Of a DNA stretch of 64,000 bases, positions 26,878 to 47,466 are shown in pieces; the first letter of the stretch is position 1; every line of letters begins with the position of its first letter. This stretch comes from Cyclobacteriaceae bacterium. GTDB lineage: Bacteria > Bacteroidota > Bacteroidia > Cytophagales > Cyclobacteriaceae. Below the pieces are notes generated by a model. That model was not told where the DNA came from. It saw only the letters and a list, made by a program, of their open reading frames with translations, and searched no databases. The stretch spans positions 1,001-65,000 of the forward strand of contig JBMTCO010000005.1 in assembly GCA_049430945.1 (NCBI GenBank). The letters run 5' to 3'. Both the position numbers and the translations under genes were made by a program.

Positions 26878-27867
26878 TCAGACGTTATAGTATTTTTTCA
26901 TTTTTTCCACGTGAGCCTTTACGGAGGTAATTAATTCAGGCGGCTCCAGTACTTTTATCCTGCTGCCGAGGCCAAGAAGGGAAATGGTCAGTTCTTCAGA
27001 AAGGTAAACATCCAGCTGAATCACGGCACCTTTTTCATCCTCATCCATGATGCGCTGAGTTGCGTGCAGTGGTTGGATTTTGAGGAAATAAACAGAATCA
27101 GTGCTTACCCAGAAACGAACACAGCTGGGTTTACCTGATTGCAGCGTTGTAATTCCGATGCTATGTTTAAAATATCTGTTCAGATTAAAAGTAGGATCCC
27201 GGTAAAAGGAAACCCCTGCCACATCACGAACTGTCTTGATCCTGTCCAGTGCAAGATTTATGGTAAAATCCTTTTCTGCCGAATATCCGATCACATACCA
27301 TAGGCCTCTGTATTCCTTAAGTGCGTAAGGAGAGAAATAATGCTTGACTACTTTTTTCTGACGCATTGAGCGGTGTTCGATGATGATGCATTTTTCTTCC
27401 AGAATGGCTTCATGCAGCGGCTCCAGAAATTCAACGCCTTGCACCTGAAGATTTGATTCGCTGATAATGGCCGATCCCTCCTTTTTACGCTCAGTAACCT
27501 TTCTGAAAATTTTATTCAATACTGACTGTGCTTCCCTGATGAGCGCGATGTGGCTGTTACCATTCAACACGTTGATTGCAAAATCCAGGGCTTTGATTTC
27601 AGCTTTTTCGAGTTCATTGGTAAAAATTCTGTAATTCTCCTCCTCATAGTAATAACCCCTTTTTCGGGAACAGATGATGGGCGCCTTGAATTCTTGTTTC
27701 AAAAATCTGATGTCACCATCGAGCGTCTCAATTGCCACTGCGGTGCCACCGTGGGCCTCTAGTTTTAAATTAAGTTCATCAAGCAAATGCTGTCTTTCAA
27801 TGTTACCCTGTGCAATCAATTCATCAAGGATTCGGTATCGGAGATATGCATTTTTATTAATTGGCAT
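26878..27867 (-). CDS. HTH-WYL(-WCX) domain transcriptional regulator
   Basis: MPINKNAYLRYRILD N-terminus, wHTH (TLDGDIRFLK), SPYALKEYRGLWYVIG, ALDRI, and C-terminal LQPLH..Q...LGSRIKVLEP. Confidence 0.92.
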   Translation of the reverse strand: MPINKNAYLRYRILDELIAQGNIERQHLLDELNLKLEAHGGTAVAIETLDGDIRFLKQEFKAPIICSRKRGYYYEEENYRIFTNELEKAEIKALDFAINVLNGNSHIALIREAQSVLNKIFRKVTERKKEGSAIISESNLQVQGVEFLEPLHEAILEEKCIIIEHRSMRQKKVVKHYFSPYALKEYRGLWYVIGYSAEKDFTINLALDRIKTVRDVAGVSFYRDPTFNLNRYFKHSIGITTLQSGKPSCVRFWVSTDSVYFLKIQPLHATQRIMDEDEKGAVIQLDVYLSEELTISLLGLGSRIKVLEPPELITSVKAHVEKMKKYYNV

Positions 27868-27933: not shown

Positions 27934-29991
27934 TCAGGCTGCTTTAATTCTTGTTTCCTGTTTCGGGAATTTTGCAGTCACAACTGACTGACCCTTTAGT
28001 GCTGACTTAAGCGCTGACCTGTAAAAATTGCTGCGGGGATTTTCCGATAATGCTTCCGGATCAATTCCTGAACCATACTCCAGGGCCATTTCTCTGAGCA
28101 TAGCACTTTCAATTACCGGATGATCAGATAAATACCCGGAGAGGTGCAGCAACCATTTTTTTTGTGACTGAAGGTATGCTTTAGCGGATTCATAGGCCTC
28201 CTGCAGCCAGGTCGCTGCAATATTCCGTTGTTGTTCGGTGGGCGGAAGGCCGGCATTTGCATGACTCATAGGAAACTCAAAAAATCCGGGCACCTCACCC
28301 ATACCGGACTCAAGCAACATTTCATTAACAAGCCTGGTGGCATTCCGCAAATCGGATCCGGCTCCAAGCGTAATATTTTCCTTCCCGAAAATAATTTCTT
28401 CTGCTGCCAGGCCGCCCATCAATGCAATCAGTCTTAGTTTAAGTTCTCTGAATGAAAGACATCGCTCTGGGTTTTCGTTCCTGGTGAATCCTGCCATATG
28501 TATTTCCGATGTAACAGAATGCACACTTACCGGCACACGATACATCATTCCGATTGAAATTACAGCATGACCGGATTCATGGACTGCTGTAACCGTCTGA
28601 AGCTCATCTTTCCTCGGTTTGCGGAGTTTGTGTACAGATAAACCTAATTCCTCCTCCATCCTGACCATTCTACCTTTTTTACTGCGGAAGTTTTTTACCA
28701 AATGCGTTCCGGTCCAGCTCAGCTCCACAATAGTTAAATCCAGTCCAAGACGGAACCGTTCCACCATAATTTTTCCTGCCTGTGATCCGATGAGTTCATG
28801 GATGGTGGTGAACAGCGGACGAACGCCCTGCGTGGGAAATACGCCTTCACTGAATATCAATTGATGGATAGAGCTGTCAATTTCAAGTTTTACGCCTTCC
28901 TCAAGTGCGCGATTCGAAATTTTTAACAGTTCTGCACTGATAAGTTTTCTGAAAGACTCCGAACTGAAGGCAGGGTAGATCAAGTGACATGAACCCAGCC
29001 GTGCAATCTGCTCAGGCCTGAAACGGCGTGTAAGGGCAGTTCTGATAGTATTGATGTTTATTTCAAGACTCTGCCGGTGAAAATCATCCGGAGAAATATC
29101 CAGGTTCAGGTCATGACTCATCGGGAAAGCCTCATCCAGGTTGCCCATCACAAAAACCAGTCCTTTGCTGCAATCCATAATCTGCTGACCAAGAGAGTCC
29201 TTATAAGTTTTATGTAGGAACTGCAACAGCTCCGCGCCATTAAGTGTATTGATGTGTTTTTCCAGTTCATAAACTGTCTTAAACTTTCCGAGTGTGATTT
29301 CATAAATCTCTTCAAGACTCCATGCCGGTATGGCTCTTATTGCCTTATTGTCATGATGCTTTTCAAATTCCTCCCTCGGTATAAAAGCATGCTGAAAACG
29401 TTTCAGCACCTCGATGTACAATTCATGACCTTCTGTAACAATACCCTTCTCAATGCCGGCGCCATTGGCAAGGGCCGTGGATAATAAATGAATAAGCTGA
29501 AATACGCTGCTTTGTGCGTAACAATTTAGCGTTGTGACCAGTTGCCCGTTATCAAGAATGTCCCAGACATTTCTGATAAAACCTTTATCAATTTCATCAT
29601 CAGATGAATTAATTGTTCGGGCAAGCTGGAATTCATCAAAGGCTATGACCAGGGGCACTCCATTATGGTGAGGATAGAGGTTTTGTAAACCTTTTTTGAT
29701 GGTGTGCTCTTTGTCGTATGCTTCTCCAAGATCAAATTTGAAATAGCGATTTTCAAATCCGATAAGCCGGACAAACCTTGATACCAGTGATGTTTTCCCT
29801 ACCCCTGTAAGACCCCACAGGTTAACAACCAGGGGCCTGTCCTGTAAGTATGGGAAAAGAAACCATGGAGTGGTCACATCAATGACGCGATCAATAACAG
29901 AGTCGATACCAATGAATTCTGATTTCAGCTGAGCTCTGACAGATTCAAACAACCGGTGTTTTTCCAGAATTTCTTCGCCTTTTATAGTCAT
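27934..29991 (-). CDS. Soluble AAA+ ATPase (ClpB D2-like) fused to M41 (FtsH-type) Zn-peptidase domain
   Basis: Walker A GLTGVGKT, Walker B IAFDE, FRPEQIARLG, GVRPL (sensor 2), then HESGH...GGLAAEEIIFG...GAGSDL. No TM segment. ATG 29991 chosen. Confidence 0.85.
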   Translation of the reverse strand: MTIKGEEILEKHRLFESVRAQLKSEFIGIDSVIDRVIDVTTPWFLFPYLQDRPLVVNLWGLTGVGKTSLVSRFVRLIGFENRYFKFDLGEAYDKEHTIKKGLQNLYPHHNGVPLVIAFDEFQLARTINSSDDEIDKGFIRNVWDILDNGQLVTTLNCYAQSSVFQLIHLLSTALANGAGIEKGIVTEGHELYIEVLKRFQHAFIPREEFEKHHDNKAIRAIPAWSLEEIYEITLGKFKTVYELEKHINTLNGAELLQFLHKTYKDSLGQQIMDCSKGLVFVMGNLDEAFPMSHDLNLDISPDDFHRQSLEININTIRTALTRRFRPEQIARLGSCHLIYPAFSSESFRKLISAELLKISNRALEEGVKLEIDSSIHQLIFSEGVFPTQGVRPLFTTIHELIGSQAGKIMVERFRLGLDLTIVELSWTGTHLVKNFRSKKGRMVRMEEELGLSVHKLRKPRKDELQTVTAVHESGHAVISIGMMYRVPVSVHSVTSEIHMAGFTRNENPERCLSFRELKLRLIALMGGLAAEEIIFGKENITLGAGSDLRNATRLVNEMLLESGMGEVPGFFEFPMSHANAGLPPTEQQRNIAATWLQEAYESAKAYLQSQKKWLLHLSGYLSDHPVIESAMLREMALEYGSGIDPEALSENPRSNFYRSALKSALKGQSVVTAKFPKQETRIKAA

Positions 29992-30017
29992 ATACAGGAT
30001 TTGAGGTAACTGGGATG

Positions 30018-30052
30018 CGAAAATAGGCTGAAGCATTGTAGCCTAATTACAA
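30018..30052 (-). promoter_or_regulatory. Operator TTGTA-GCCTAAT-TACAA (30036-30052) plus -7-like box TATTTTCG (30018-30025)
   Basis: Perfect palindrome exactly 10 nt upstream of the -7-like box, in front of the AAA-M41 gene. Confidence 0.75.
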
Positions 30053-30225: not shown

Positions 30226-30300
30226 GGGAGCTTAGCTCAGCTGGTTCAGAGCATCTGCCTTACAAGCAGAGGGTCGGGGGTTCGAACCCCTCAGCTCCCA
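30226..30300 (+). tRNA. tRNA-Val (anticodon TAC); CCA not encoded
   Basis: Acceptor stem GGGAGCT/AGCTCCC, D-arm AGCTCAGCTGGTTCAGAGC, anticodon arm TCTGC-CTTACAA-GCAGA, T-loop GGTTCGAACCC. Confidence 0.97.
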
Positions 30301-30319
30301 CTCTTATACTTCATTTCAA

Positions 30320-30468: not shown

Positions 30469-33400
30469 CTATGCCAAAGCTTTATCACCGCGAAATAAAG
30501 CATCCATTCCTTCAATAACCTTACGGTCAGGCATTGAGTAGAAAATACCTTCTCTTCTGCCACGGCGCACGCCTCTGACAAATAAATAAATAACTCCTCC
30601 AAACTGACTGTCGTAATCAAACCCGGGAATGCGGCTCTGCAAATATCTCATGGCCGCCAGAGTATATAAATGATACTGCAGATTATAATTATTCTCTGCC
30701 ATGGCCATGTTCAGCTGTTCTTCAGAATAATCTTCAACACGGTCACCGAGGTAGTTTGACTTCCAGTCGAGGATGTAAAACTTGCCTTCCCACTCAAAAA
30801 ATAAATCCATCAGACCATTCATAATTCCTTCCAGTTCGGAGCGGCTGCCCATTCCATCTTCATCTGTCAGCGCGACTTTGAAAGGAGCATGTGCTGGCGC
30901 AAGGCTCTGCAGCTCTGAAACCTGAAATGGTTTCAGATCAAGATCAAATTCAAGTTCAGCCATACGATTTGTACGATCAAGTTCTGAAAGCCTGAAGGTG
31001 CCGTCCGGCAAAAGCTGAGTCTCAAGGATTTCTTTTACCATAATGGTTAATGAAGACTCAAAGGAATCAGAAGCACCGGAATCTGCGGAGTTTCGTACCT
31101 GAAAGCGCTTGACCATTTTACTTACCACCGCATCCCATCCATGCGGAGCTGTGAAGTTGACATTTTCAAAAATGGCATGCAGCATATTTCCTGTTACGGC
31201 TCCTTTACGCAGTCTGCGGAAAACAAAATGGTCGTATGCCGTCATGTCCGTACGCTGACTAACCGGAATAGCAACCGGCGTATGATCCGGCGTCAGCCTC
31301 GTGAAGCTTGCACGCCTCCAGTTTTTCTCCCGGAGTTCAAAAATACCTGCGTTTTTATAAACAGCTGTCTGAACCTGCTCAGGAGCAGCCTGCCCCGCAA
31401 GAAGGTTTGAAGGCGGTGTCCATAAACGGATAAGACTATTTTCAGGGCTTTCCAGTTCAAGCTTGGAAAAGAAGCGTCCAAGGAATTCGGCCCCGGAATT
31501 ATATTTTTTATCAGTGAGAATAAAACATTGTTGTTTGGCCCTGGTCAATGCCACATAAAGAAGTCTCAGATTTTCTCGTTCCTGTTGCAGACGATACAAT
31601 TCCATTTTATCCGGATATCCTTCCAGTGTAATTTTATTTATCGTAACATAATCTCCCTGCTCGGTTTGGAATTCAGCAGTTTTATGTTTTGACTGTGAGA
31701 CAGGTTCAAGCTGAGGACAAATTACAATAGGGTATTCAAGTCCCTTTGATTTATGGATGGTTACAATTTTAACGGCATCTTCGTCGCTTTCAATGCGCTG
31801 GATATATTCATCCCCTTCAGGAGTTTCTCCTTCAGTACCCCGCTGAAGCCATTGCACCTGTTCTGCCATGTCATAGCTTTTTCGTACTGAAATTCTGTGA
31901 ATCAGGTCAACCAGTTGCAGCAAATTGGCAACAGAGCGCTCAGCATTTTTTACTCCGGCTTCGTAAAAACGGCTATGGACCTTATGATCTGCCATAAACT
32001 GCTGGAGCATCACATAAACACCCTTTGATTTCCAGGCTTCCTGATATCTGCGAAACCTGGCAATCAGATCTTCACTGTTTGACCTGCTCAGTTGCTCAAT
32101 TGAGTAACCGGCAATATTTGTCAGCAACGCACGGTTCACTTTACTTACTGTCAGTTCATGAATTCCGGACAGTACATAAAATAATTCCAAAGCCTCAGGT
32201 GATTCAAGTATTCCGCTGTCATCCACTGTAACTGAAGGTATCCGGGCGGCAGCAAGCTGCTTTTTTATTTCTTGGCCTTTTGAATTCGTCCTTACCAGAA
32301 TTCCGATATCTGAGAATTTAATATCATTCGGAACACCATTTTTAAGCAGTTTATATTCTCCGGACCAAACCAAATGACTGACCAGGACAGCCAGCGAATT
32401 AATCCGATGGTCAACCTTAGGGTGTGATGATACAAGAACCGGCGCTATATTTTCTCCGTTTCTGGTAAGAATCGCTTTATCGTTTGGAACAGGTGATTTG
32501 ACCTTCATATACTTAAGGTCATTGCCATATCTGAATGTATCAAAGGGACCTCCCTCCTGTTCAGGCAGAAAAAATTTGTTCATTGCATCAATGAGCCTGG
32601 TATTGGAGCGGAAATTCGTATTCATGTAATGTAATGTGTGAACTTCCGATACAGCTTTGAAGTAAGTACTAAGATCCGCCTTTCTCCAGCCATAGATGGA
32701 TTGCTTTGGATCGCCGATGAAATACAAATAGTGCTCTGCTCCGAAGAGCTCTTTAAAAATCCCGTACTGATCGGCATCTGTATCCTGAAACTCATCAATG
32801 AACACAGCATGAAATCTTTCGCGGAGCCGGTTTCGAAGCTCATCCCTCTGTGTCCCTTCCGTAACAGCCTTTCGGACCTGTATGATCAGGTCATCAAATG
32901 TTTTTGAAAGCCTGCGGTCTTTTTCTTTTCCAATCAGGTCAGCAATTGAAGCCATGGCATCGCCTGCAATTTGCTGACACAGGATTCTAAGGCCTGCCTG
33001 TTGTGCATTACACTTGGCAAGGTAGGCTCTCATTTCATTGACAGCAGGGCCGAACACACACTTGTCTCTGATATAGTTTACTTCCTGTTTCAGACTCAAA
33101 GTTTCTGTTAAAGAATCCCATAATTCTCTTTCAAAGTGAACTTTGAAAGCCTTTGATGCGTTTGTGTTATCCTCAAATAACTGCAGAATCGTCTCTTTGT
33201 GATTTTTACATGCTTGAATAAAAGCATTCTTCAAATCTTCCGTCTCCCTTAAAATCTGTAAAATTCTGTTCTGATGCGTCTGCTCCAAAAAATCCTCAAC
33301 AAGCGCTTCCGGATTAAATGGTTTCTTGCCGGAAAGCCCTGACTTGACCATTTTAAAAATCACGGTTCGCTCCATACTGAAATTTATAGGATCCTCATTG

Positions 33401-33975
33401 GGCCTAATAACTGCATGTTCTCGCAACAAGGCTGTCAAAATATCAGGATGAAGGGTGGCAATTTTACTCCGCCAGTAATCATTCAGGTGGTCATCAATAA
33501 GTATCTGATAATCGTCTTCTGACAACATGCCTGTGCCAAAAGCCTGCATGGTCTCAAACGAGAATTCCTGAAGAACACGCTGGCAAAAACTATGAATGGT
33601 CAGCACAGCAGTCTCGTCCAACAAGGCTACAGCATTTTCAAGCTTTTTAATCACCTCCTCCTGTGAAGTGGCATTTATCCGGGCAGAGATGATGTTCTTA
33701 ATATTTACATCGGCATCTGCCGCATTGAGGTCGCGTGCGATCTCCAGGGCCTGCCTCACAAAAGAGCGCACACGCAATTCAAGTTCTGCCACAGCAGCAC
33801 GCGTGAAAGTCACCATCAGGATCTTATTTACCGGAATATTTTTTTCCAATAGCAAACGCAGCGTAAGGATGGCAATGGAATATGTTTTTCCTGTACCTGC
33901 AGATGCTTCAACCGCCTGTGGTTGTTGGATGACATCAACAGTTACAGCTTCAAAATTTTCATTAATAATGGGCAT
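30469..33975 (-). CDS. recB: Exodeoxyribonuclease V beta subunit (helicase + nuclease)
   Basis: EASAGTGKTYSI, TFTRAAVAEL, DEFQDTD, IGDPKQSIYGWR, TIHKSKGLEY, RLLYVALTRA, and nuclease motifs MDL...ILDWKSN and YNLQYHLY. ATG 33975. Confidence 0.93.
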   Translation of the reverse strand: MPIINENFEAVTVDVIQQPQAVEASAGTGKTYSIAILTLRLLLEKNIPVNKILMVTFTRAAVAELELRVRSFVRQALEIARDLNAADADVNIKNIISARINATSQEEVIKKLENAVALLDETAVLTIHSFCQRVLQEFSFETMQAFGTGMLSEDDYQILIDDHLNDYWRSKIATLHPDILTALLREHAVIRPNEDPINFSMERTVIFKMVKSGLSGKKPFNPEALVEDFLEQTHQNRILQILRETEDLKNAFIQACKNHKETILQLFEDNTNASKAFKVHFERELWDSLTETLSLKQEVNYIRDKCVFGPAVNEMRAYLAKCNAQQAGLRILCQQIAGDAMASIADLIGKEKDRRLSKTFDDLIIQVRKAVTEGTQRDELRNRLRERFHAVFIDEFQDTDADQYGIFKELFGAEHYLYFIGDPKQSIYGWRKADLSTYFKAVSEVHTLHYMNTNFRSNTRLIDAMNKFFLPEQEGGPFDTFRYGNDLKYMKVKSPVPNDKAILTRNGENIAPVLVSSHPKVDHRINSLAVLVSHLVWSGEYKLLKNGVPNDIKFSDIGILVRTNSKGQEIKKQLAAARIPSVTVDDSGILESPEALELFYVLSGIHELTVSKVNRALLTNIAGYSIEQLSRSNSEDLIARFRRYQEAWKSKGVYVMLQQFMADHKVHSRFYEAGVKNAERSVANLLQLVDLIHRISVRKSYDMAEQVQWLQRGTEGETPEGDEYIQRIESDEDAVKIVTIHKSKGLEYPIVICPQLEPVSQSKHKTAEFQTEQGDYVTINKITLEGYPDKMELYRLQQERENLRLLYVALTRAKQQCFILTDKKYNSGAEFLGRFFSKLELESPENSLIRLWTPPSNLLAGQAAPEQVQTAVYKNAGIFELREKNWRRASFTRLTPDHTPVAIPVSQRTDMTAYDHFVFRRLRKGAVTGNMLHAIFENVNFTAPHGWDAVVSKMVKRFQVRNSADSGASDSFESSLTIMVKEILETQLLPDGTFRLSELDRTNRMAELEFDLDLKPFQVSELQSLAPAHAPFKVALTDEDGMGSRSELEGIMNGLMDLFFEWEGKFYILDWKSNYLGDRVEDYSEEQLNMAMAENNYNLQYHLYTLAAMRYLQSRIPGFDYDSQFGGVIYLFVRGVRRGRREGIFYSMPDRKVIEGMDALFRGDKALA

Positions 33976-33979
33976 AGAC

Positions 33980-36900
33980 TTATTTAATTGTACCGGGGAA
34001 AAATTCATTTATTAACCGGGTCATTTCCTGAGTATTTTCTTTAAGTATTTCAAAAGTATCTTCTGAAACAAAATCCTGTTCACAGGCTTTCAGGAAATAA
34101 TCATCTCTTAAGGGGTGTGAATCTGCAGAGCGGGCTTTTTCAATCTCTTCAAGCAAATCGGACAATTCCTTACCATTTTTAAATTTACCTATCAGTCCAT
34201 GGAAGAAGTAGAAAAAATTATTTAATCCACCCTTATAATATTCAATGAGCTTTTGCAATTTCTCCTTCGCTCCTTCAGGAGAAATTTTTTCAGGACCACA
34301 AACACTTGCTTCTCCTTTATAATTAATAAATACAAACTCAACGGGTAAACCTGAAGCTACAAGGCCCAGGTAATAAACAATACCACTGAGCATGTGCTTA
34401 TGAGCTGACTTTGAAAAAGTCCACCTCACCATTCGGAGCTTATTTCCGGAATTCAGAATGTCAGCAACCTGACCTTTCAACTGAATGGTTTCATAATCCA
34501 CCTTCACATTCTGCGGACCGGACTCCCATCCATCCGTCCACATTTTTATTTCATAGCGCAAAGGTTCAAGTTCTGCTCTTAAAATACGGGCAGTTGCCTT
34601 GCCGAGATTATGAAGCGGCAGTTTACCGTTATCAGATTGCATTTTGACAATCGCGTCGAAATCACTGTCCTGCATCCGAATCAGCTTATCTGACAATTCC
34701 CGTTCGTCAAAAAATTCAAGCTCAAAGGGTTCATGATCCTTAAGAATCACTTCATCTTCTCTGTACCAGATATCAAAAAACTTAGTGAGAAATGTTTTGG
34801 GAGGGTTTTCGAGGAAATGAGCAATTTCCTGAATGCCTACAATTGCAGAATCAGTCAAAGGAGACTTCCTTGTTTCTCCGATTCTTATATCGATGCGCGA
34901 ACGAAAGCGATCCGGTGACAGATAACTGGTGAGGCCGTGAGGACCATAACGTTTACTAAAACCATGAAGCGGATGAATCGTAACCCAGTCGGCAGTCAGT
35001 TTATCAGGATTTTTCTTTTGAGCTCTTGCTACAAACCCAATCAGTTCATCAACCAGAATACTGGGTGGTAGCACAGCCCCATCTTTCTCACTTCGTGCCT
35101 GGAAGCTGATGTAAAGTTTTTCCTGCGCTGATAATACGGTTTCAAGGAATAAGTGCTTGTCGTTGGCCTTAACGTTCCGGTCTCCTTTTTTATGTTTAGA
35201 AAGCAAACTGAAATTCACCGGTGTTTCCTTGCGTGGAAAGGCTTCAAAGTTCATTCCGAGCATGGCCACAACACGAAACGGAATACTGCGCATAGGAAGC
35301 AGCGAGCAGAATGTTATTCCCTTCGCTGCAAACTGGGTACTGCGTCGTTCCACAGAAAGCTTACTGAGGAAACTGGTTCTGAAAACATCAAAAGGAATGG
35401 CAACCTGCGCGGCTTCCTTCATATCAGTGAGCTGCTCAATCAGACTGATAAACCTTGGATAGTCCTCATCATCCCTTTCGCCTGCCTGAAATACCATATC
35501 CTCAAGTAATTCCTTCAGGTAATCTGCCCAGCCTGCAAGTGTTCTTGGCGTGGCACGCATCTCAATTTTATCACGAAGGACTCGTAAAAAATAAGCAAGT
35601 CTGATGCGATCCAGTCCTCCGGCTCCTTCTTCCGTATCAAGAACAGGAACCAAATCAACGCCATCGGAATAGGATGCATCTCCTTCGGGCTGCATGCACA
35701 ACCCATAAATCATCTTTTTAAGGCCGGTGGTCCAGCTGATTTTGCGGCTGTCGTCATCGTTCGTTCCATCAAGGCCGAAAAAAACTGTAGCCTGCCTGAT
35801 GGCATTTCTGATTTCATCCAGATCATCAAACTGAAATCTGCGCCTGATGTATGGAAAATCCAGCATTCCCATGATTTCTTCTGCCTTAAAGCGCAGACCA
35901 TCGAATTCAAGGAGTGCCTTCAGAGCAGCGAAAAGATTATTTTCTGATGCAATCAGTTCATCAGCTATTGAATATCGGAATCGGTTAGCAGAGTTGCCGA
36001 AAACTGCATGTATATATGGTGCATACAAGTCAATGTCAGGCACCATCACCAGAAAATCGCGTGCAGAATAGTCTGATCCTTCTTTGTCAACCAGTGAAAC
36101 AAAATAATTGTACAGCACCTCTACTTCACGAGGAGGAGTATAGCAGCCGTTAATTATTACCGAACCATCCTTATGATCCTGCGCACCAATGGCAATTTCA
36201 TTTCCTTCCTGAAGGTCCCGGAAGGTCATATTTTTATATATGCCGTAATGAAGGCGGGCAAGAAGGTTAGTCGGATTTTCAGGCGCTACGGCCAGACTGT
36301 CATCATAGCGGTTAATCAGTTCATCATCCTGAAACAATAACCAGAAAGATTCCTTGATGATACCACCCCAGTTGAGCAGCAGATCATTTCCATGAGGTTC
36401 ATTTCCTTCAAAGAGCGGGTTTACATATTTCCCGGTAAATCGTGCAAGCTGCTTTTCTGAAAAGTAATCCAGCCAGTAAACCTCAGGCGCAGGATTAAGC
36501 AGAAACATATGGATGTCAACAAATCCGGAAAGGGCTTTAAAAATTTTCTGGAAAAATGGGGTGACTACGGCAATTCCAAAAATGTACAGGTGGGGCATCT
36601 TTTCAAGAATGCGCTCACGCACTTCAGGCTCATTTAATTTGCTGATGATCAGTCCGGCAATCTGGGTTCTGTCCTTTGCGTTGTCTCCGAAACTGTCCCG
36701 TAACTTCCTCCAGAGATATGGTTGCCAGTCTTCTGAGTTCTCAATTTCTTGGTCAGTAAGATTATTCCAGTCGGTGATGTCGTCTGAACGGTAGATCTGG
36801 TACTGATCAAACAAATCGGCAACTTTCTGCGCAAGGGTCGCCATTCGGATCACATCCCGGTCATAGTAAGACGCAACCTCAGGAAATTTTTCACGGAACG

Positions 36901-37213
36901 CCGGTGAGTCCAGAATTGAATACACTACCCAGCAGATCTCTTCTTTTGAAAATGAATCCTGTCGCTGATTAATACCTGCCGCGATCCACTCAAGTCGACT
37001 TACCACATCAGCAGGCTGGACAAATTGAATGTTGGATGCGATTCCGGTCTGAGCGGCGATGGTATTTTTGAGCCAACTGCTCATGCCGTCAGTCTGAGTA
37101 ATCACAAGCTGTGATCTCATCACACCAAGACCGTGGCTATGGGCGGCCATATCGGTACAAAGACGGCCGGCAAGCCTCTTCAGGTCATTTGAAACATGCA
37201 GTAAAAATGGCAT
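33980..37213 (-). CDS. recC: Exodeoxyribonuclease V gamma subunit
   Basis: LHVSNDL, ADLFDQYQIYR, LLNP...YW, CYTPPREVEVL, VMVPDIDLYAPYIHAVF, FCSLLPMRSIPFRVV, HPLHGFS. Confidence 0.93.
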   Translation of the reverse strand: MPFLLHVSNDLKRLAGRLCTDMAAHSHGLGVMRSQLVITQTDGMSSWLKNTIAAQTGIASNIQFVQPADVVSRLEWIAAGINQRQDSFSKEEICWVVYSILDSPAFREKFPEVASYYDRDVIRMATLAQKVADLFDQYQIYRSDDITDWNNLTDQEIENSEDWQPYLWRKLRDSFGDNAKDRTQIAGLIISKLNEPEVRERILEKMPHLYIFGIAVVTPFFQKIFKALSGFVDIHMFLLNPAPEVYWLDYFSEKQLARFTGKYVNPLFEGNEPHGNDLLLNWGGIIKESFWLLFQDDELINRYDDSLAVAPENPTNLLARLHYGIYKNMTFRDLQEGNEIAIGAQDHKDGSVIINGCYTPPREVEVLYNYFVSLVDKEGSDYSARDFLVMVPDIDLYAPYIHAVFGNSANRFRYSIADELIASENNLFAALKALLEFDGLRFKAEEIMGMLDFPYIRRRFQFDDLDEIRNAIRQATVFFGLDGTNDDDSRKISWTTGLKKMIYGLCMQPEGDASYSDGVDLVPVLDTEEGAGGLDRIRLAYFLRVLRDKIEMRATPRTLAGWADYLKELLEDMVFQAGERDDEDYPRFISLIEQLTDMKEAAQVAIPFDVFRTSFLSKLSVERRSTQFAAKGITFCSLLPMRSIPFRVVAMLGMNFEAFPRKETPVNFSLLSKHKKGDRNVKANDKHLFLETVLSAQEKLYISFQARSEKDGAVLPPSILVDELIGFVARAQKKNPDKLTADWVTIHPLHGFSKRYGPHGLTSYLSPDRFRSRIDIRIGETRKSPLTDSAIVGIQEIAHFLENPPKTFLTKFFDIWYREDEVILKDHEPFELEFFDERELSDKLIRMQDSDFDAIVKMQSDNGKLPLHNLGKATARILRAELEPLRYEIKMWTDGWESGPQNVKVDYETIQLKGQVADILNSGNKLRMVRWTFSKSAHKHMLSGIVYYLGLVASGLPVEFVFINYKGEASVCGPEKISPEGAKEKLQKLIEYYKGGLNNFFYFFHGLIGKFKNGKELSDLLEEIEKARSADSHPLRDDYFLKACEQDFVSEDTFEILKENTQEMTRLINEFFPGTIK

Positions 37214-37225
37214 TGATTATTTTTT

Positions 37226-39073
37226 TCAGTTAGGAATGGAGGGACGGCTAAGTTTCTCGCTGACTCCGGAAGCTCTGGTGACCTGGCGACCGACGCAGGC
37301 TATGATCTGGTCTTTGGTTCCAGAAATGATCACGGACTGTTTGGCGCGGGTGATAGCCGTATATAATAGTTCACGGGTAAGAAGCCTGTGTCCGGGTTCC
37401 TTCGGAAGAAAAATCATAACGGAATCAAACTCACTTCCCTGACTCTTGTGGATGGTCATGGCATAGGTTGTTTCTGTATGACTGAGGTACGCCGGAAGAA
37501 CCGACCGCAATACGGGTTTGCCATGCTCATCCAAGATTCCTGAATCAAACCAAACCCGTAATGTGCCCTCAGCATCTTCTCGAACAATGCCGACATCGCC
37601 ATTCACAAGTCCCAGCTCGCTGTTATTTCTTGTGATCAATACAGGGCGGTGTTTATACCAGACAGTTCCCGTATTAATGAGCTTTTTACTTTGCAGGTAT
37701 TGCTCAATGCGCTTATTCAGTTCATAAAGACCGAATTTACCCTCCCGTACAGCTGTGAGAATGCGAATGGAGTTCAGTTTTTTCAAAGCTTCGGATTTGT
37801 CGTCTTCTTTTATGAAGGCCTCATATCCGGAAGCAAATTGCTTCAGAAGTTCTTCGTCATATTCAACATCAAAAAGTAACTGCGGAGATTTTTTATCCTG
37901 ATCACGCGTCTTTTGGTACAGGTCTGTCAGTTCACCAAGTGTGTCCGCATCATTATGAAGGACAGCTTTTGCAACATTTCCGATCAGACCCAGCGCATTA
38001 AACCGGTGGCTGTACTTAAGTTCAGTGATGAATCCGGAGAGAAGACCCGCGTTTGGAACAGGAACAGGCTGCCCGGGAATGCAGCGTGATTCATCGGTTA
38101 TAAAACGGTTAAACCAATTCTGATCGGAAAAGGAGAAGGCATTAAGTGTTCCTGCAGAACGGCAAAGATCTCCCAGCATACTTCCTGCTTCTACAGATGC
38201 GAGCTGGTTCTGATCGCCAAGTAATATTAATCGTCCATGCTCAGGCAAGGCATCCATCAGTTTACTCATCATTGGCATATCTGTCATACTTGACTCATCT
38301 ACAACGATCAGGTCATAAGGAAGTGGATTTGATTTATTGTGCTTGAAGTGAACCGTGCCTCTTTTATAGCCAAGCAGGCTGTGTATGGTCAGCGCCGGAA
38401 TTTCCTGTATCCACTTCCTGATGTTTTCAGGTTCGTTAGCCACTGATTTACGAAGCGATTCAATCATACGCATGGCGGCCTTACCTGTCGGGGCAGTGAG
38501 GTGAACAATTTTATCCGGATATATGCGATGAAAAATTTTCAGAATTTTTGCCAAAGTGGTTGTCTTGCCTGTACCGGGACCACCGGTAAGAATTGAAAAA
38601 TCTGACAACAGACAACGCATGGCACCAACCAGCTGCCAGTCAACCGCCTCAGGCGTACCTGTAATTCCCGGAGTAAGTTCCGGAAATGATGTTCCGAGGG
38701 ACTTTATAAAATCTAAATTTCTAAGCAGCAATTCTTCACGCTCAGCACGTAATGATGAACTTTTGACAACCGCTGCTTTTATTTTATTAATGACGTTAGC
38801 CTCATACCTGAAATAACGGTGCAGGTATAACTTTCCATTGGTCAGTATAAAGGGTTTGATGTCTGTTTCCTCCGTTCCAACCCAGGTTGAAAGCTTGGAC
38901 CAATCAGGTAATTCTGTCAGATTATAAGGGGGCTGATTAAGCGTTTCTTCCGGATTGATACAGATATGTCCTTCCAGTAAGCGTTCGCTTAACAGATAAG
39001 CAAAAGGTCTGATCCGCAGATCAGGGAAAAACTCAGCAAACTGGCGATGTACATCGTTGGTAATAACAGTCAT
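37226..39073 (-). CDS. recD: Exodeoxyribonuclease V alpha subunit
   Basis: GHICI, LYLHRY, VDWQ, GGPGTGKTT, APTGKAA, VVDESSM, LGDQNQLASVEAG, NGDVG, YAMTIHKSQGSEF, RELLYTAITRA. Confidence 0.95.
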   Translation of the reverse strand: MTVITNDVHRQFAEFFPDLRIRPFAYLLSERLLEGHICINPEETLNQPPYNLTELPDWSKLSTWVGTEETDIKPFILTNGKLYLHRYFRYEANVINKIKAAVVKSSSLRAEREELLLRNLDFIKSLGTSFPELTPGITGTPEAVDWQLVGAMRCLLSDFSILTGGPGTGKTTTLAKILKIFHRIYPDKIVHLTAPTGKAAMRMIESLRKSVANEPENIRKWIQEIPALTIHSLLGYKRGTVHFKHNKSNPLPYDLIVVDESSMTDMPMMSKLMDALPEHGRLILLGDQNQLASVEAGSMLGDLCRSAGTLNAFSFSDQNWFNRFITDESRCIPGQPVPVPNAGLLSGFITELKYSHRFNALGLIGNVAKAVLHNDADTLGELTDLYQKTRDQDKKSPQLLFDVEYDEELLKQFASGYEAFIKEDDKSEALKKLNSIRILTAVREGKFGLYELNKRIEQYLQSKKLINTGTVWYKHRPVLITRNNSELGLVNGDVGIVREDAEGTLRVWFDSGILDEHGKPVLRSVLPAYLSHTETTYAMTIHKSQGSEFDSVMIFLPKEPGHRLLTRELLYTAITRAKQSVIISGTKDQIIACVGRQVTRASGVSEKLSRPSIPN

Positions 39074-39161: not shown

Positions 39162-39350
39162 TTAATCAGTTTCAGGATCCTTCTTTTCCTCTACAGGTAT
39201 CTGTTCATCATTCTCTTCACTATTTGACTCCGGATTGACTGAGGAATCGGGGGTAACATACTTATCCAGATTATGGATCAAAAAAGAGTCTGCCTGCTCC
39301 TGACCAAAAAGAGACGCAAAAGACTCAAGAAATTCTTCAGAAAACTTCAT
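39162..39350 (-). CDS. Small acidic hypothetical protein (62 aa)
   Basis: ATG 39350 after an A-rich leader and operator/-7 architecture; 17 D/E versus 4 K and 0 R. Confidence 0.6.
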   Translation of the reverse strand: MKFSEEFLESFASLFGQEQADSFLIHNLDKYVTPDSSVNPESNSEENDEQIPVEEKKDPETD

Positions 39351-39373: not shown

Positions 39374-39408
39374 CAAATAAAATGCTCCTGATTGTAGTGG
39401 AAATACAA
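39374..39408 (-). promoter_or_regulatory. Operator TTGTA-GTGGAAA-TACAA (39392-39408) plus -7-like box TTTATTTG (39374-39381)
   Basis: Perfect palindrome exactly 10 nt upstream of the -7-like box, facing the acidic ORF and recD-recC-recB. Confidence 0.75.
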
Positions 39409-39452: not shown

Positions 39453-39487
39453 TTGTAAAACCAATACAATTGACTCCCTGATTTTTG
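39453..39487 (+). promoter_or_regulatory. Operator TTGTA-AAACCAA-TACAA (39453-39469) plus -7-like box GATTTTTG (39480-39487)
   Basis: Perfect palindrome exactly 10 nt upstream of the -7-like box, 15 nt before ATG 39503. Confidence 0.75.
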
Positions 39488-39502
39488 ACGCAATTCTATT
39501 TT

Positions 39503-39880
39503 ATGAAAGAAAATCATTCAGAAACCAGTTGCCCGGGCTGCAGCTGGAAGCCGCAGGCTGATCACACATGGTATTGCCTCTGTGGACACAGCTGGAACAC
39601 ATTCGAAACAGGAGGAATTTGTCCCGGTTGCAAAAAGGCATGGGATAAGACGCAGTGTCCGGCCTGCGACAGCTGGTCAGATCATACAGACTGGTATTCA
39701 GGTCTTAAAAAGAAGCTTAGGCAAGATCTTTCTGAATTGCTGCACAAACCACGGAAAAGAAAAATCAAAAGAAAATTTTCAGTTTTTCAATACAGGTCAC
39801 TGCATAATATATCCCTGATTCAGAGAAAAAAATTCAATGCGCCTTTTTTACTTTTCAGAATACCGCCGCTTAAAAATTGA
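39503..39880 (+). CDS. Cys-rich Zn-ribbon-like hypothetical protein
   Basis: CPGC...WYCLCGHSW...CPGC...CPAC..WSDH.DWY (8 Cys) followed by a basic low-complexity tail. Confidence 0.7.
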   Translation: MKENHSETSCPGCSWKPQADHTWYCLCGHSWNTFETGGICPGCKKAWDKTQCPACDSWSDHTDWYSGLKKKLRQDLSELLHKPRKRKIKRKFSVFQYRSLHNISLIQRKKFNAPFLLFRIPPLKN

Positions 39881-39885
39881 ATTGT

Positions 39886-40737
39886 TCAGAGATCAGCAGT
39901 TCCTCCATCGGAAATCGACAACAATAAGGCTTTAACCTCTTCAGATCTTGCATGCTCGCCAAGCTTGTCAAAGGCGATTACAAGATTACGAAGTGACCTC
40001 CTGATAATGTCCTCATTTGAACATGGCTCAAAAAAGGAAGACTGCGGGGTCAACTGAATTTCCAGTATATACGTTTCGAGATCTTTTCTCGTGAATATAA
40101 GACCTCTATTAAATGCATTGATGTAGAAGTCATGGCTTTCGTCACGGCAAAGCAGCATGAACATATTAGGCAGGTTCACACCATGTACAGGAAGCTTCAG
40201 CTTGGTTGCCACCAGCATATATATAACACAAAGGCTAATGGGATTACCCTTTTTTGACTCCAGAACCACATTGATCATGGAGTTTCCCGGTGAGTGAAAA
40301 TTTCTGGTATTCGCACCAAACCGAAGTTTTGAGAACAGTACGCTGTTAAGTGCTTTTATCCGATCCATGACAGTCATGCCATCAGAAAAAGTCAGCCATA
40401 CATCATAATGGATTTGTTCAAGCTCCTGCCGCAGTTTCTGTAAATCAAGATCAGGATACTGAATGGTGGCCACAATCCACATTCCGGTAAGCAAGTCCCT
40501 ATCCGGGCTGTTATGCCATTCCTGCAAACGTTCTTTGAGCAGCTCTGTTTGCAGGTCGTGAATCAGATTTTCAATCCTTGACTGCAGATCAGGACTTAGC
40601 GCCGATTCCCACTCCTTCTCCAGATGAGGAATTATTCCGGTCCCCAGGCTTCTGATCTTTTGTTCAACGAGGCCGGCAACCTGAACATCCTGATCATCCA
40701 GAAGGGAAATAAGTGCTTTGATTTCTTTGTTTTCCAT
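39886..40737 (-). CDS. SirB1/transglutaminase-like (Transglut_core2) protein
   Basis: ALISLLDD, NSVLF...FGAN..NFHSPGNS.IN.VLE.KKGNPISL, GVNLP..F, YINAFNRG. Confidence 0.85.
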   Translation of the reverse strand: MENKEIKALISLLDDQDVQVAGLVEQKIRSLGTGIIPHLEKEWESALSPDLQSRIENLIHDLQTELLKERLQEWHNSPDRDLLTGMWIVATIQYPDLDLQKLRQELEQIHYDVWLTFSDGMTVMDRIKALNSVLFSKLRFGANTRNFHSPGNSMINVVLESKKGNPISLCVIYMLVATKLKLPVHGVNLPNMFMLLCRDESHDFYINAFNRGLIFTRKDLETYILEIQLTPQSSFFEPCSNEDIIRRSLRNLVIAFDKLGEHARSEEVKALLLSISDGGTADL

Positions 40738-40756
40738 GGTCCGGTATCAGCCGGCG

Positions 40757-41722
40757 TTATTGAGATTTTCTGTTACGTTCTTCCTCCTTAAGTAATTCCT
40801 TTTTGATCTTTTTGGCACTCTTTCCGAGCGGAGCAAAAAAATGATCAGGATTATTATTCATGTGGCTGGTCAGGCTGTCAATGCTGGTAAGCACACTATT
40901 CAGATTTTTATAGAGTGTATCATCGGTAAGCAATTTACTTGCTGTATTATCTCCTTTCTTTAGTCTGGCCATGAGATCGGTCAGTTCCTCAAGTGTTTTT
41001 TGAGTTTTGACAAGGGTCCTGTTAATCTCTAGTTGTCTGAGGGAGTCAGATATGACCTTCAGATTTTTCAGGGTAGGATCCAGTTCAGACATTGTTCCTT
41101 TCAGCTTTTCAGAGGCATCCCGGATGGTGGAGGTCAGCTCAACCATACTTTGATTTCCCTGGTCAAGCATCGTATTGAGTTTTCCCGGCGTTTCGCGAAA
41201 CCGATGAATAACTGGATTGATTTCATTCAGTGTAACGGTAAGATCATCAATAATACCGTTAAATTTTTTCAGAGTTGACTGCATGTCATAGGCAACGGGG
41301 CTCGCTGTTTCAGAAATAAGATCCAGCATACCTTTTGCCAGTTCGCCTGTAATTGTATCACCCCTCTCAATAGGAGCTGAAATATCTCCCAGATCAAGCA
41401 AAATTGATTTGCTTCCAAGCAGCGCACTGCTCAGCGTGGCTTTTGCATTTTTGCCAACCCTGACATTACCTTCAATTTCAAGCTCTACCAGAACTTTATT
41501 TTTTTGTTTTGGCATCAGGCTGATCCTGCTGACCCTGCCTACAGCATAACCATTTACAAGTACGGGGTTGGAAACTGCCAGCTCACTAACGTTGTCATAT
41601 TTCACGAAATAGTTCCCATGATCAGCAAAGAAATCTGTTCCCTTCAGGTAGTTAAATCCGAAGTATAATAGCGCAAGTGCGGCTGCGGCAAAGATTCCTA
41701 CAATAATTTCTTTATGTTTCAC
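40757..41722 (-). CDS. MlaD/MCE family protein
   Basis: N-terminal TM, FNYLKG, VLVNGYAVGRV, ALLGSKSI, coiled coil, KGDNTASKLL.DD.LY.NL. Confidence 0.88.
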   Translation of the reverse strand: MKHKEIIVGIFAAAALALLYFGFNYLKGTDFFADHGNYFVKYDNVSELAVSNPVLVNGYAVGRVSRISLMPKQKNKVLVELEIEGNVRVGKNAKATLSSALLGSKSILLDLGDISAPIERGDTITGELAKGMLDLISETASPVAYDMQSTLKKFNGIIDDLTVTLNEINPVIHRFRETPGKLNTMLDQGNQSMVELTSTIRDASEKLKGTMSELDPTLKNLKVISDSLRQLEINRTLVKTQKTLEELTDLMARLKKGDNTASKLLTDDTLYKNLNSVLTSIDSLTSHMNNNPDHFFAPLGKSAKKIKKELLKEEERNRKSQ

Positions 41723-41727
41723 GATAA

Positions 41728-42531
41728 TCAGTTAATGGCTTCTATTTGCGTTTTATAATCTTTAAATGCCCTGAACAAAGATGCGGCAATTGCTTCCTGT
41801 CCTGCGGCGCTGCCAAGATAAGCTTCCTCGCTCGCATTGGTGAGAAATCCTACCTCTGTCAGAATACTTGGCATGGTTGTTTTCCACAAGACCCAGAAAC
41901 CGGCCTGTTTCACCCCATTTGATTTTCTGCCTGCTTTCACCCTGAACTGATTTTCAACCTTTTCGGCAAGTTTAAGACTGCTTTCCTGAAAAGCGGACTG
42001 GGTCAGCGAAAAAAGGATGTACGATTCAGGACTTGTAGGATCAAAGCCTTCATAATTCTCCTCATATTTTTCATCCAGCATCATTACCGAGTTTTCGCGC
42101 TTTGAAACATCAAAATTCTGTTGTGTTTTATGCAGACCCATCACATAAGTTTCAGTTCCATGAGCCTCAGCCCGGGGTGCACTGTTTGCATGAATGCAGA
42201 CAAAAACATCCGCTTTAGCCTTATTTGCAATCTCGGCGCGTTCATTCAGATCCAGATACCGGTCATCTTTTCTGGTATAAATGACCTTAACATTAGGAAG
42301 GTTTTTCTCTATATAGTTTCCCAGCAGCAGAGCAATTTTCAGGGAGACTTCTTTTTCCTTTACCTTTTTACCACTGGAGCCCGGATCTTTACCTCCATGG
42401 CCCGGATCAATCACAACGACACGAACCTTACTGCCCGCAGGTACACTAATTTTGGGTTCCGGGCGCTCAACACCTGAAAAGTTCAGCAGGGTAAGTGCCA
42501 GTAAAAGAAGTTTGATGCCGATATTCCGCAC
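41728..42531 (-). CDS. N-acetylmuramoyl-L-alanine amidase (Amidase_3)
   Basis: VVIDPGHGGKDPG, EKEV, YTRKDD, CIHAN, PSILTEVGFLTN. Probable GTG start at 42531. Confidence 0.92.
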   Translation of the reverse strand: MRNIGIKLLLLALTLLNFSGVERPEPKISVPAGSKVRVVVIDPGHGGKDPGSSGKKVKEKEVSLKIALLLGNYIEKNLPNVKVIYTRKDDRYLDLNERAEIANKAKADVFVCIHANSAPRAEAHGTETYVMGLHKTQQNFDVSKRENSVMMLDEKYEENYEGFDPTSPESYILFSLTQSAFQESSLKLAEKVENQFRVKAGRKSNGVKQAGFWVLWKTTMPSILTEVGFLTNASEEAYLGSAAGQEAIAASLFRAFKDYKTQIEAIN

Positions 42532-42561
42532 GGTATTGAAAAGAAAGTTGTGGTTTTGCGG

Positions 42562-42569
42562 TAAATTTG
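42562..42569 (+). promoter_or_regulatory. -7 promoter box TAAATTTG (lptD)
   Basis: Perfect TAnnTTTG in the divergent amidase/lptD gap. Confidence 0.5.
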
Positions 42570-47452: not shown

Positions 47453-47466
47453 AAAACCCGGGAATC

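Follow-up and report, generated by a model that had tools for sequence, protein, structure and literature searches.

A recDCB operon probably acquired from a Chitinophagaceae-like donor in place of addAB in a Cyclobacteriaceae genome

A RecBCD operon identified in the metagenome-assembled genome (MAG) of an uncultured Cyclobacteriaceae bacterium probably came from a Chitinophagaceae-like donor, replaced addAB and afterwards ended up downstream of TTGTA-N7-TACAA palindromes. The operon occupies positions 30469-39073 on the minus strand of the window, by which we mean the whole stretch of 64,000 nucleotides that was analyzed. It consists of three intact, co-directional ORFs that correspond to recD, recC and recB. 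The enzyme itself is ordinary; its history and wiring are moderately interesting.

37226 to 39073, minus strand: recD, the first gene of the operon, encoding an SF1B helicase subunit of 615 aa
33980 to 37213, minus strand: recC, 1077 aa, beginning 12 nt past the recD stop
30469 to 34008, minus strand: recB, 1179 aa from the ATG at 34008, or 1168 aa from the ATG at 33975

Functional annotation assigned all three subunits. RecD scored 435.5 bits against TIGR01447 (an NCBIfam equivalog, cut-off 310), contains the Pfam domains AAA_19, AAA_30, UvrD_C_2 and SH3_13, and has Walker A (GGPGTGKT at residue 164) and motif II (DExx; IVVDESS at 256). RecC reached 574.3 bits against TIGR01450, slightly below the cut-off of 582.9 and comparable to the scores of other Bacteroidia RecC (583 and 575 bits). 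Both of its Pfam domains were above threshold (PF04257, the N-terminal Exonuc_V_gamma domain, 186 bits; PF17946, RecC_C, 85.5 bits). RecB scored 707.1 bits against TIGR00609 (cut-off 696). Its Walker A (GTGKT at residue 38), motif II (VFIDEFQ at 402) and nuclease motif (DLFF...ILDWK at 1068) were all found, the last aligning with the D1067/D1080/K1082 region of E. coli RecB. Residues 349-1174 matched E. coli RecB structures at E=2e-111, and in this alignment the motifs of the helicase and of the D...D-x-K nuclease coincided; the Pfam model PDDEXK_1 stayed below threshold on this protein. The recD-recC gap is 12 nt. A recB start at ATG 33975 would leave 4 nt between recC and recB, whereas the alternative in-frame ATG upstream, at 34008, gives a 29-nt overlap with recC. 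No ptrA-like gene lies within the operon. The preliminary description of the locus had reported three intact genes with 12- and 4-nt gaps, all motifs and no ptrA, and we confirm this, with its coordinates exact. Together, recD, recC and recB specify a complete RecBCD (exonuclease V) helicase-nuclease that appears to be functional. By homology, the enzyme would bind double-strand ends and unwind them with the RecB and RecD motors; the RecB nuclease would degrade the DNA, and single-stranded DNA (ssDNA) would then be passed to RecA.

The order recD-recC-recB is no peculiarity of this locus: it characterizes the Bacteroidia RecBCD lineage in general and was found in ~52 Bacteroidia loci having all three genes. 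Loci from proteobacteria and from Bacteroidota classes other than Bacteroidia have recC-recB-recD instead. Phylogenetically, the Bacteroidia RecBCD operons form one clade (SH-aLRT 100), apart from those of proteobacteria and the other classes of the phylum. These patterns indicate that the D-C-B order is derived and common to all Bacteroidia RecBCD operons, which makes it a useful marker for annotating Bacteroidia RecBCD and for tracking transfers.

The surroundings of the operon contain two small ORFs, three palindromes and a second minus-strand operon.

39162 to 39350, minus strand: short acidic ORF of 62 aa (start ATG 39350), located between an operator-like site and recD
39392 to 39408, no strand assigned: perfect operator-like palindrome TTGTAGTGGAAATACAA, 41 nt upstream of the acidic-ORF ATG at 39350
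39453 to 39469, no strand assigned: second perfect palindrome TTGTAAAACCAATACAA, facing the divergent Zn-ribbon ORF
39485 to 39880, plus strand: Cys-rich Zn-ribbon-like ORF, 131 aa, probable start at an ATG near 39503, divergent from recDCB
30036 to 30052, no strand assigned: third perfect palindrome, TTGTAGCCTAATTACAA, preceding the M41-like/WYL operon
27934 to 30036, minus strand: AAA/ClpB-D2-small plus M41-peptidase-like protein (Pfam Peptidase_M41 7.9e-20)
26878 to 27867, minus strand: wHTH-WYL-WCX transcription factor, 329 aa (Pfam WYL 1.4e-11, WCX 4.4e-7)

Neither small ORF matched Pfam, NCBIfam or PADLOC. In the related species L166 (RecC 90% identical), the Zn-ribbon-like ORF is 96% and the acidic ORF 77% identical; the acidic ORF is absent from G024, the closest (sister) genome. 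No terminator-like hairpin was found between the acidic ORF and recD, and this ORF is probably co-transcribed with recDCB. The M41-like gene product (~700 aa) had no PADLOC match. Its L166 counterpart is 89% identical and lacks the upstream ATG; translation of the M41-like gene probably begins at Met16, near 29991. The WYL protein matched the PADLOC WYL models and is the only wHTH-WYL-WCX protein found in the genome; its nearest solved structures are PafBC (7p5x and 9fnd, E=9e-9). It had been described as a neighbour of recDCB. A WYL gene is indeed part of the locus, but it lies 2.6 kb away, beyond a tRNA and the 700-aa AAA/M41-peptidase-like gene.

A perfect TTGTA-N7-TACAA precedes both recDCB and the M41-protease/WYL operon, and this palindrome is also found ahead of a PD-(D/E)XK nuclease locus in another part of the genome. 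At the sequence level, the "operator-bearing promoter" first proposed for recDCB therefore holds as a conserved palindrome common to the two promoters. L166 has a perfect palindrome with a different spacer in the intergenic region equivalent to that upstream of recDCB, and keeps the third palindrome at the same place, 45 nt before the called start. G024 has a single perfect site in the 200-bp spacer before recD and only two sites genome-wide. The window contains three perfect sites, while ~0.12 are expected (calculated from the genome-wide expectation of 5.3). A function for the palindromes would be argued from clustering and conservation only.

We propose that the palindromes are candidate operators of a small regulon under the single wHTH-WYL-WCX factor, which would be a sensor of the DriD/PafBC/CapW type and is the candidate operator-binding protein. 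We give this reading a chance just short of even. Another explanation, which we also take seriously and hold to be somewhat improbable, is that the palindromes are bound by a non-WYL regulator or are chance or structural features, with recDCB constitutive as in E. coli. The genome-wide count of perfect sites fits this, with six seen and 5.3 expected, no excess over chance; yet five of the six lie in three promoter regions, in pairs, beside DNA-metabolism genes and the WYL operon. The half-sites are also invariant in two related species (L166 and G024) while the spacers change, and the 5-N7-5 architecture fits DriD-type WYL factors (PMC12392091). G024 retains the recD site, though no WYL orthologue was found in that genome (77% complete), and of the regions upstream of recD in 63 other Bacteroidia loci, just two have a similar motif. 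Against this, WYL genes adjoin recDCB in three other Bacteroidia loci.

A more specific version of the WYL regulon, which we regard as possible and rather unlikely, is that RecBCD was wired after the replacement into a small DNA-damage regulon whose single WYL factor senses RecBCD-made ssDNA. Such a regulon would cover recDCB plus the acidic leader ORF, the Zn-ribbon protein, the M41 AAA protease together with the regulator, the PD-(D/E)XK nuclease and perhaps uvrA. If true, this would be, as far as we know, the first RecBCD under direct damage-responsive WYL transcriptional control, and it would parallel, in Bacteroidota, the DriD and PafBC pathways. If the palindromes are WYL operators, the locus lets one test how an acquired repair machine comes under host control, and whether an ssDNA-sensing regulator receives feedback from end resection.

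Adjacent genes for AddA-like (~1080 aa) and AddB-like (~950 aa) proteins are present in nearly all relatives from the genus and the order. In this genome, tblastn with the proteins of genus relatives found no AddA or AddB and gave only weak matches to RecB and UvrD. Scans with PF12705 and PF00580 detected no AddAB either, the only PF12705 (PDDEXK_1) match being a 247-aa stand-alone nuclease. The conserved gene that adjoins addA, encoding 761 aa, was located at C3:9798-12083, mid-contig, with other genes beside it and without addAB. The absence is not absolute because the genome is a MAG of 208 contigs, with an estimated completeness of 100%. Searches of four other RecBCD-bearing Bacteroidia genomes (G024, G081, G675 and G177) found no AddAB-type nuclease matches, so that AddAB is absent from all five such genomes examined. 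Genomes with both enzymes are rare in general (only 16 of 5563; PMC6452273). We interpret this as replacement of AddAB by RecBCD, which is a known pattern.

The preliminary description had considered RecBCD an accessory enzyme. This does not agree with the tblastn result, the addA neighbour without addAB or the lack of AddAB in other RecBCD-bearing Bacteroidia. Moreover, RecBCD is the only enzyme of the RecBCD/AddAB class found in the genome, which that description had itself listed among the findings that would count against it. As the sole end-processing enzyme of this class detected, it is therefore not an extra one. For an accessory role, AddAB would have to be hidden in an assembly gap, with RecBCD serving as an inducible anti-phage or anti-plasmid nuclease. 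The number of contigs leaves room for such a gap, the region from ~24 to 39.9 kb is lineage-specific and has a WYL regulator of a kind often linked to defence islands, and conserved operator-like sites lie upstream of recDCB. However, not even a fragment of AddA or AddB was recovered, the addA neighbour lies mid-contig in an assembly estimated as complete, and PADLOC did not match RecC and matched RecB and RecD through generic helicase domains. We thus consider an accessory role very unlikely.

The distribution of the replacing enzyme is patchy. Two of the 25 genus genomes encode RecC, the 16 other families sampled from the order do not, and across the class it occurs in 4 of 401 genomes. RecB, RecC and RecD share their nearest relatives, which are from Sediminibacterium/Chitinophagaceae MAGs (41-49% identity; 42% for RecC). 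The RecC tree puts the window clade (SH-aLRT 100) within freshwater Chitinophagaceae, inside two successive clades that each have 100% support and carry the labels Chitinophagaceae or unclassified Bacteroidetes. The NCBI taxonomic labels of MAGs may be wrong, and the long stem branch of the window clade (0.58) makes long-branch effects on this placement possible. Constraining those 14 sequences to group without the window clade cost 76.9 lnL units (AU p=0.0023; the group was picked after the tree had been inspected). Together, the patchy distribution, the same Chitinophagaceae nearest relatives for the three subunits and the AU test uphold the earlier claim that the operon was acquired. The transfer would be old or from an unsampled lineage, because identity to the donor group is only 41-49% and the stem is long.

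G024 shares this history. Its transglutaminase-like flanking protein is 85% identical to that of the window, compared with 61-68% in other members of the genus, and recD directly follows the same flanking gene. RecBCD is 57-59% identical between the two genomes, whose 27 syntenic orthologue pairs span 50-95% (median 84%). Our analyses point to a single acquisition in the ancestor of a small subclade of the genus, composed of this genome, G024 and a few metagenomic relatives. In that ancestor, the whole recDCB operon would have arrived from a Chitinophagaceae-like donor and the original addAB would have disappeared, and the palindromes would have come to precede recDCB after the acquisition. 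No clean empty site was demonstrable because the locus is at a synteny breakpoint.

Scans for marks of transfer (integrase, att repeat, GC deviation) found none. The operon does lie beside a tRNA, as first described:

30226 to 30301, plus strand: tRNA-Val(TAC), predicted by ARAGORN, convergent with recB

The tRNA is 167 nt from the recB stop. There is no att-like scar, since nothing elsewhere in the window repeats 13 nt or more of the tRNA 3' end. Pfam identified no integrase among the 19 ORFs of at least 120 aa between 19943 and 47452, and the GC content across the operon (0.42-0.46) is like that of the remainder of the window. A tRNA-integrated genomic island was rejected for these reasons (no integrase, no direct repeat, no deviant composition). 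The window also contains the type IX secretion genes PorP/SprF and CHU_C, as well as LptD_2, which support the assignment to Bacteroidota; named homologues in Cyclobacteriaceae MAGs also back this assignment.

Flat GC content and missing mobility genes would suit vertical inheritance, with RecBCD present in the Bacteroidia ancestor, lost nearly everywhere, including most Cytophagales, and kept here. The shared derived D-C-B order in one Bacteroidia clade is in line with this too. We consider it highly improbable: the window clade is nested in one Chitinophagaceae sub-branch and is not sister to that order, as the AU test indicates, and RecC is missing from the 16 other families and from 23 of the 25 genus members. 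Dozens of independent losses, with independent retention of AddAB in each such lineage, would be required. Finally, a Chitinophagaceae fragment misjoined to or binned with a Cyclobacteriaceae MAG, conceivable for any MAG whose nearest RecBCD relatives are Chitinophagaceae, is scarcely credible given that the operon is mid-way in a 65-kb contig with flanking genes 61-68% identical to and syntenic with those of genus relatives, that G024, an independent assembly, joins the same flanking gene to recD, that ENA and JGI contigs bear the same Zn-ribbon/acidic-ORF/recDCB block, and that no Chitinophagaceae sequence exceeds the 41-49% identity range. Acquisition by transfer and replacement of addAB is the reading that we retain.

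The gene order in E. coli is recC-ptrA-recB-recD. The operon described here has the three subunits of E. coli RecBCD (exonuclease V; PDB 1W36, 5LD2) and differs from it in its D-C-B order, its 12- and 4-nt gaps, the lack of ptrA and the palindromes upstream; its RecC is only ~27% identical to proteobacterial RecC. Closer counterparts are the operons of Chitinophagaceae/Sphingobacteriales, annotated by NCBI as exodeoxyribonuclease V subunits (for example in Chitinophaga, Sediminibacterium, Mucilaginibacter, Pedobacter arcticus and Edaphocola flava), with which it has the D-C-B order and the RecC-tree clade in common. In contrast to these, its host belongs to another order, Cytophagales, a long stem branch lies between, and its upstream region (acidic ORF, Zn-ribbon ORF and TTGTA-N7-TACAA sites) is lacking in 61 of 63 other recD upstream regions. 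Bacteroidota AddAB, as in Bacteroides fragilis (PMC2887965), has the same cellular role, the processing of double-strand break ends. Unlike RecBCD, it has two subunits, one motor and two nucleases, and it has no homologue in this genome. RecBCD and AddAB are analogous machines that are seldom found together, and this locus appears to capture one replacing the other within a single Cytophagales genus, with an identifiable (Chitinophagaceae-like) donor lineage.

For the regulator, the comparison set is DriD (Caulobacter), PafBC (mycobacteria), DdaA (Acinetobacter) and CapW/BrxR, all WYL-domain regulators of DNA damage or defence; we found no report in the literature examined of a RecBCD operon as a target of such regulators. 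Like them, the 329-aa protein has the wHTH-WYL-WCX architecture, PafBC as its nearest solved structure and a candidate site in the promoter of its own operon. The DriD site, CGAC-N7-GTCG, has the same N7 spacing as the candidate 5-N7-5 operator, but its half-site sequence differs (PMC12392091). Unlike all of these regulators, the factor described here shares an operon with an M41-type AAA protease.

The preliminary description of intact recD, recC and recB genes beside a tRNA was accurate, with open reading frames at exactly these coordinates:

37226-39073, minus strand: recD, 615 aa, NCBIfam equivalog match of 435.5 bits (cut-off 310)
33980-37213, minus strand: recC, 1077 aa, NCBIfam equivalog match of 574.3 bits (cut-off 582.9)
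30469-34008, minus strand: recB, 1179 aa, NCBIfam equivalog match of 707.1 bits (cut-off 696)
30226-30301, plus strand, opposite to recB: tRNA-Val(TAC)

RecC scores marginally below its NCBIfam cut-off, and its two Pfam RecC domains both score clearly above theirs. E. coli RecB structures align with the window RecB (E=2e-111), and the E. coli catalytic residues line up with its Walker A sequence GTGKT, its motif II VFIDEFQ and its nuclease signature, DLFF...ILDWK. RecD carries the motifs GGPGTGKT and IVVDESS. The spacing is 12 nt between recD and recC and 4 nt between recC and recB if recB starts at ATG 33975; the in-frame ATG at 34008 would give an overlap with recC.

The idea that this enzyme is accessory was contradicted by the gene content of the host genome, a 2.89 Mb assembly of 208 contigs rated 100% complete, in which the window occupies C5:1001-65000. 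Nearly all relatives encode an AddB-like protein (~950 aa, PDDEXK_1 E ~1e-35 to 1e-40), in most cases with an AddA-like protein (~1080 aa) on the same contig; of the five loci retrieved, four have the two genes side by side. The only PDDEXK_1 match of the host is a 247-aa protein, and its UvrD-family matches comprise RecB, RecD, an SF1B helicase, a fragment of a NERD helicase and a single UvrD/PcrA gene broken across two contigs. Searching the host genome by tblastn with the AddA and AddB of relatives gave only weak matches to RecB and UvrD. A 761-aa gene that adjoins addA in four relatives lies mid-contig in the host (contig C3, 9798-12083), with unrelated genes in place of the expected addAB. 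The sister genome G024, of the same genus and also RecBCD-bearing, has no AddB-type match, and in three other RecBCD-bearing Bacteroidia genomes (G081, Edaphocola flava; G675; G177; each at least 99% complete) only RecB nuclease domains were matched and no AddAB. AddAB is thus missing from all five RecBCD-bearing Bacteroidia genomes examined. Judged by gene content, the window RecBCD is a predicted replacement of AddAB and not an addition to it; the characterised Bacteroidota enzyme is the AddAB of B. fragilis (PMC2887965). Another genus member (G008, 100% complete) has neither a RecC match nor an AddB-type PDDEXK_1 match, so it may lack both end-processing complexes or have a divergent one.

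RecC is patchily distributed around the host. It was detected in two of 25 same-genus genomes (the host and G024) and in 4 of 401 genomes taken from across the class; the 16 other families sampled within the order all lacked it. It is common in the wider GTDB phylum (141 of 401 genomes), where all but three of the carriers, the host among those three, belong to other classes. A single-protein RecC search of genome contigs returned no relative, and an alignment-based search of the same kind succeeded.

We surveyed gene order in the flanks of 16 genomes and in 79 named loci, locating recB, recC and recD in each. The recD-recC-recB order is not peculiar to this locus: about 52 Bacteroidia loci with all three genes have it, from Chitinophaga, Niastella, Filimonas, Segetibacter, Sediminibacterium, Mucilaginibacter, Albibacterium, Arcticibacter, Edaphocola and Geofilum, as well as from Pedobacter arcticus, a Flavobacteriaceae MAG and G675. 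Partial Bacteroidia loci are consistent with it, and none has another order. In contrast, every three-gene locus of proteobacteria and of the phylum's other classes reads recC-recB-recD, which identifies recD-recC-recB as the hallmark of the RecBCD lineage in Bacteroidia. Literature searches found no report on this order or on RecBCD in Chitinophaga. In one Chitinophagaceae MAG (L148, 8001-11185), recC is split into three open reading frames (500, 200 and 401 aa), reflecting either a pseudogene or sequencing errors.

The claim that the operon was acquired was supported by this patchy distribution and by phylogeny. The nearest RecC sequences are metagenomic (91, 90, 79 and 58% identity), followed by Chitinophagaceae at ~43%. 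In a tree of 86 RecC sequences, the window, these metagenomic sequences and G024 form a single clade (SH-aLRT 100). This clade lies inside two successively larger ones, each with 100% support, composed of freshwater Chitinophagaceae-type sequences (Sediminibacterium, Ferruginibacter, G675). Constraining those 14 sequences, a group chosen post hoc with the tree already seen, to a clade without the window clade changed the log-likelihood by -76.9 units (AU p=0.0023). The nearest relatives of RecC are also those of RecB and RecD, so the operon was transferred in one piece. Among genomes, G024 is closest to the host, with a flanking transglutaminase-like protein 85% identical to that of the window vs 61-68% in all other genus members, and its recD lies directly downstream of the same gene. 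The RecBCD proteins of the two genomes share 57-59% identity, low but within the range of 27 syntenic orthologue pairs (50-95%, median 84%). The simplest account is one acquisition predating the split of the two species. The transfer is not recent, given 41-49% identity to any sampled donor, ordinary GC content and no integrase or tRNA-derived repeat. A tRNA-integrated island was rejected, as there is no att-like repeat, integrase or GC shift.

Type IX secretion genes and LptD_2 in the window place the host in Bacteroidota, and the named homologues of a flanking gene come from Cyclobacteriaceae MAGs, pointing to an uncultured member of Cytophagales. In genus relatives the transglutaminase-like gene is followed by an AhpC/ACPS/WD40 block, which the host has beyond LptD. 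This displacement indicates that the locus is a rearrangement point, where no clean empty insertion site could be shown among genus relatives. Synteny with the genus loci L021-L029 is rearranged across 39886-48138, and in relatives the MlaD-like and transglutaminase-like genes lie a further 1.7-2.7 kb apart. Beyond the tRNA, the PorP/SprF-like and WYL genes have no orthologues in the genus; together with the displaced block, this makes the entire region from ~24 to 39.9 kb lineage-specific. In the metagenomic relative L166, with a RecC 90% identical to that of the window, an HD_4-domain gene (17083-17640) lies between recB and tRNA-Val, and a polysaccharide-export cluster replaces the transglutaminase/MlaD/amidase genes upstream, so the block borders vary between close relatives.

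The operator-bearing promoter proposed for the operon corresponds at the sequence level to a conserved palindrome, TTGTA-N7-TACAA, which also precedes the operon of the WYL regulator. The relevant features are:

39485-39880, plus strand: Cys-rich Zn-ribbon-like ORF, divergent from the recDCB unit, no family match
39453-39469: perfect palindrome, in the spacer separating the divergent Zn-ribbon ORF and acidic-ORF/recDCB unit
39392-39408: perfect palindrome, same divergent spacer
39162-39350, minus strand: acidic ORF, 62 aa, highly acidic, between the candidate operator and recD
30036-30052: perfect palindrome, upstream of the M41-like/WYL operon
27934-30036, minus strand: M41-like protein, 700 aa, soluble, in one operon with the WYL regulator
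26878-27867: WYL protein, 329 aa

From genome-wide figures, ~0.12 sites are expected per 64 kb, so the three in the window are unlikely by chance (Poisson ~2e-4). Genome-wide there are six perfect copies vs 5.3 expected, five of them in three promoter regions. Conservation is the stronger argument for these candidate sites. L166 has perfect palindromes at all three corresponding places, where the half-sites match those of the window and the spacers differ, and G024 has a perfect site in the 200-bp spacer preceding recD. The only other G024 site in 2.5 Mb, within a conserved ORF and with no counterpart in the host, is probably due to chance. The third promoter region belongs to a locus on contig C12 of the host (8084-9319), where two perfect palindromes 72 bp apart are followed by an ORF of 100 aa and the stand-alone PD-(D/E)XK (PF12705) nuclease of 247 aa; this locus is likely to be the regulon's third member.

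Intergenic sites with at most one mismatch number 25 genome-wide, five of them perfect. Most of the ten ORFs read downstream of such sites look unrelated to DNA metabolism; only uvrA and a local zincin gene seem relevant. The former has a one-mismatch site (TTGTAAATATTTTTCAA, contig C4, 15698-15714) separated by 54 nt from the 940-aa ORF reading as uvrA, which may be due to chance, given the 25 sites. The latter has one (TTGTAGAAGTGTTTCAA, 26808-26824) that directly precedes a zincin-like gene of 179 aa and is located downstream of the WYL gene. The same operator before the addAB of relatives was not supported (one one-mismatch match in five loci). The palindrome is not a non-canonical Bacteroidetes LexA box, as the published motifs (GGA-N5-TCC and CTAA-N5-TTAG; PMC8565304) differ from it.

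The acidic ORF is 77% identical overall in L166, with a conserved N-terminal half, and is missing from G024, in which 200 bp separate recD from the flanking gene. We found no terminator-like hairpin between it and recD, which is compatible with co-transcription. The Zn-ribbon-like ORF is 96% identical in L166, exceeding the conservation of RecC. The M41-like protein has a weak AAA/ClpB-D2-small region and, at its C-terminus, an M41 (FtsH-type) peptidase domain. Its translation probably begins at Met16, since the upstream ATG is missing in L166.

The WYL protein, described at first as neighbouring, is not an immediate neighbour of recB; the tRNA and the M41-like gene intervene. It has a wHTH-WYL-WCX architecture, is the sole protein of this kind found in the host, and has PafBC structures as its nearest solved relatives. 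The 5-N7-5 form of the palindrome matches the DriD site, CGAC-N7-GTCG (PMC12392091). WYL homologues adjoin recDCB in 3 of 69 other Bacteroidia loci:

L090, 5032-6202: WYL-family regulator, divergent from recD
L098, 13591-14734: WYL-family regulator
L149, 6149 and 17811-18815: WYL-family regulators

Adjacent spacers in these loci contain the N7-spaced palindromes TTATT-N7-AATAA, ATGCA-N7-TGCAT and TGTA-N7-TACA, and in one of the three loci TGTAAATAGATTACA precedes recD by 66 nt. A similar motif occurs in only 2 of 63 other recD upstream regions, which is a counterpoint to WYL control and led us to reject the operator as a general trait of recD-recC-recB operons. A search of G024 (77% complete) gave no WYL orthologue, which also counts against it. 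We regard control of recDCB by the WYL protein, whether as activator or as repressor, as possible but slightly doubtful.

In PADLOC, RecC and the M41-like protein had no match and RecB and RecD gave generic helicase-domain matches only, so the locus fits no known defence system; nothing specific favours an anti-phage role beyond that of any RecBCD. Overall, acquisition and a conserved candidate operator stand from the first interpretation and an accessory role does not; the gene order is ordinary for the lineage. The moderate interest of the locus lies in its possible WYL wiring and in the exchange of AddAB for RecBCD inside a single genus. The host and four other RecBCD-bearing Bacteroidia genomes fit the complementary distribution of RecBCD and AddAB, in which both are encoded in only 16 of 5563 genomes (PMC6452273).
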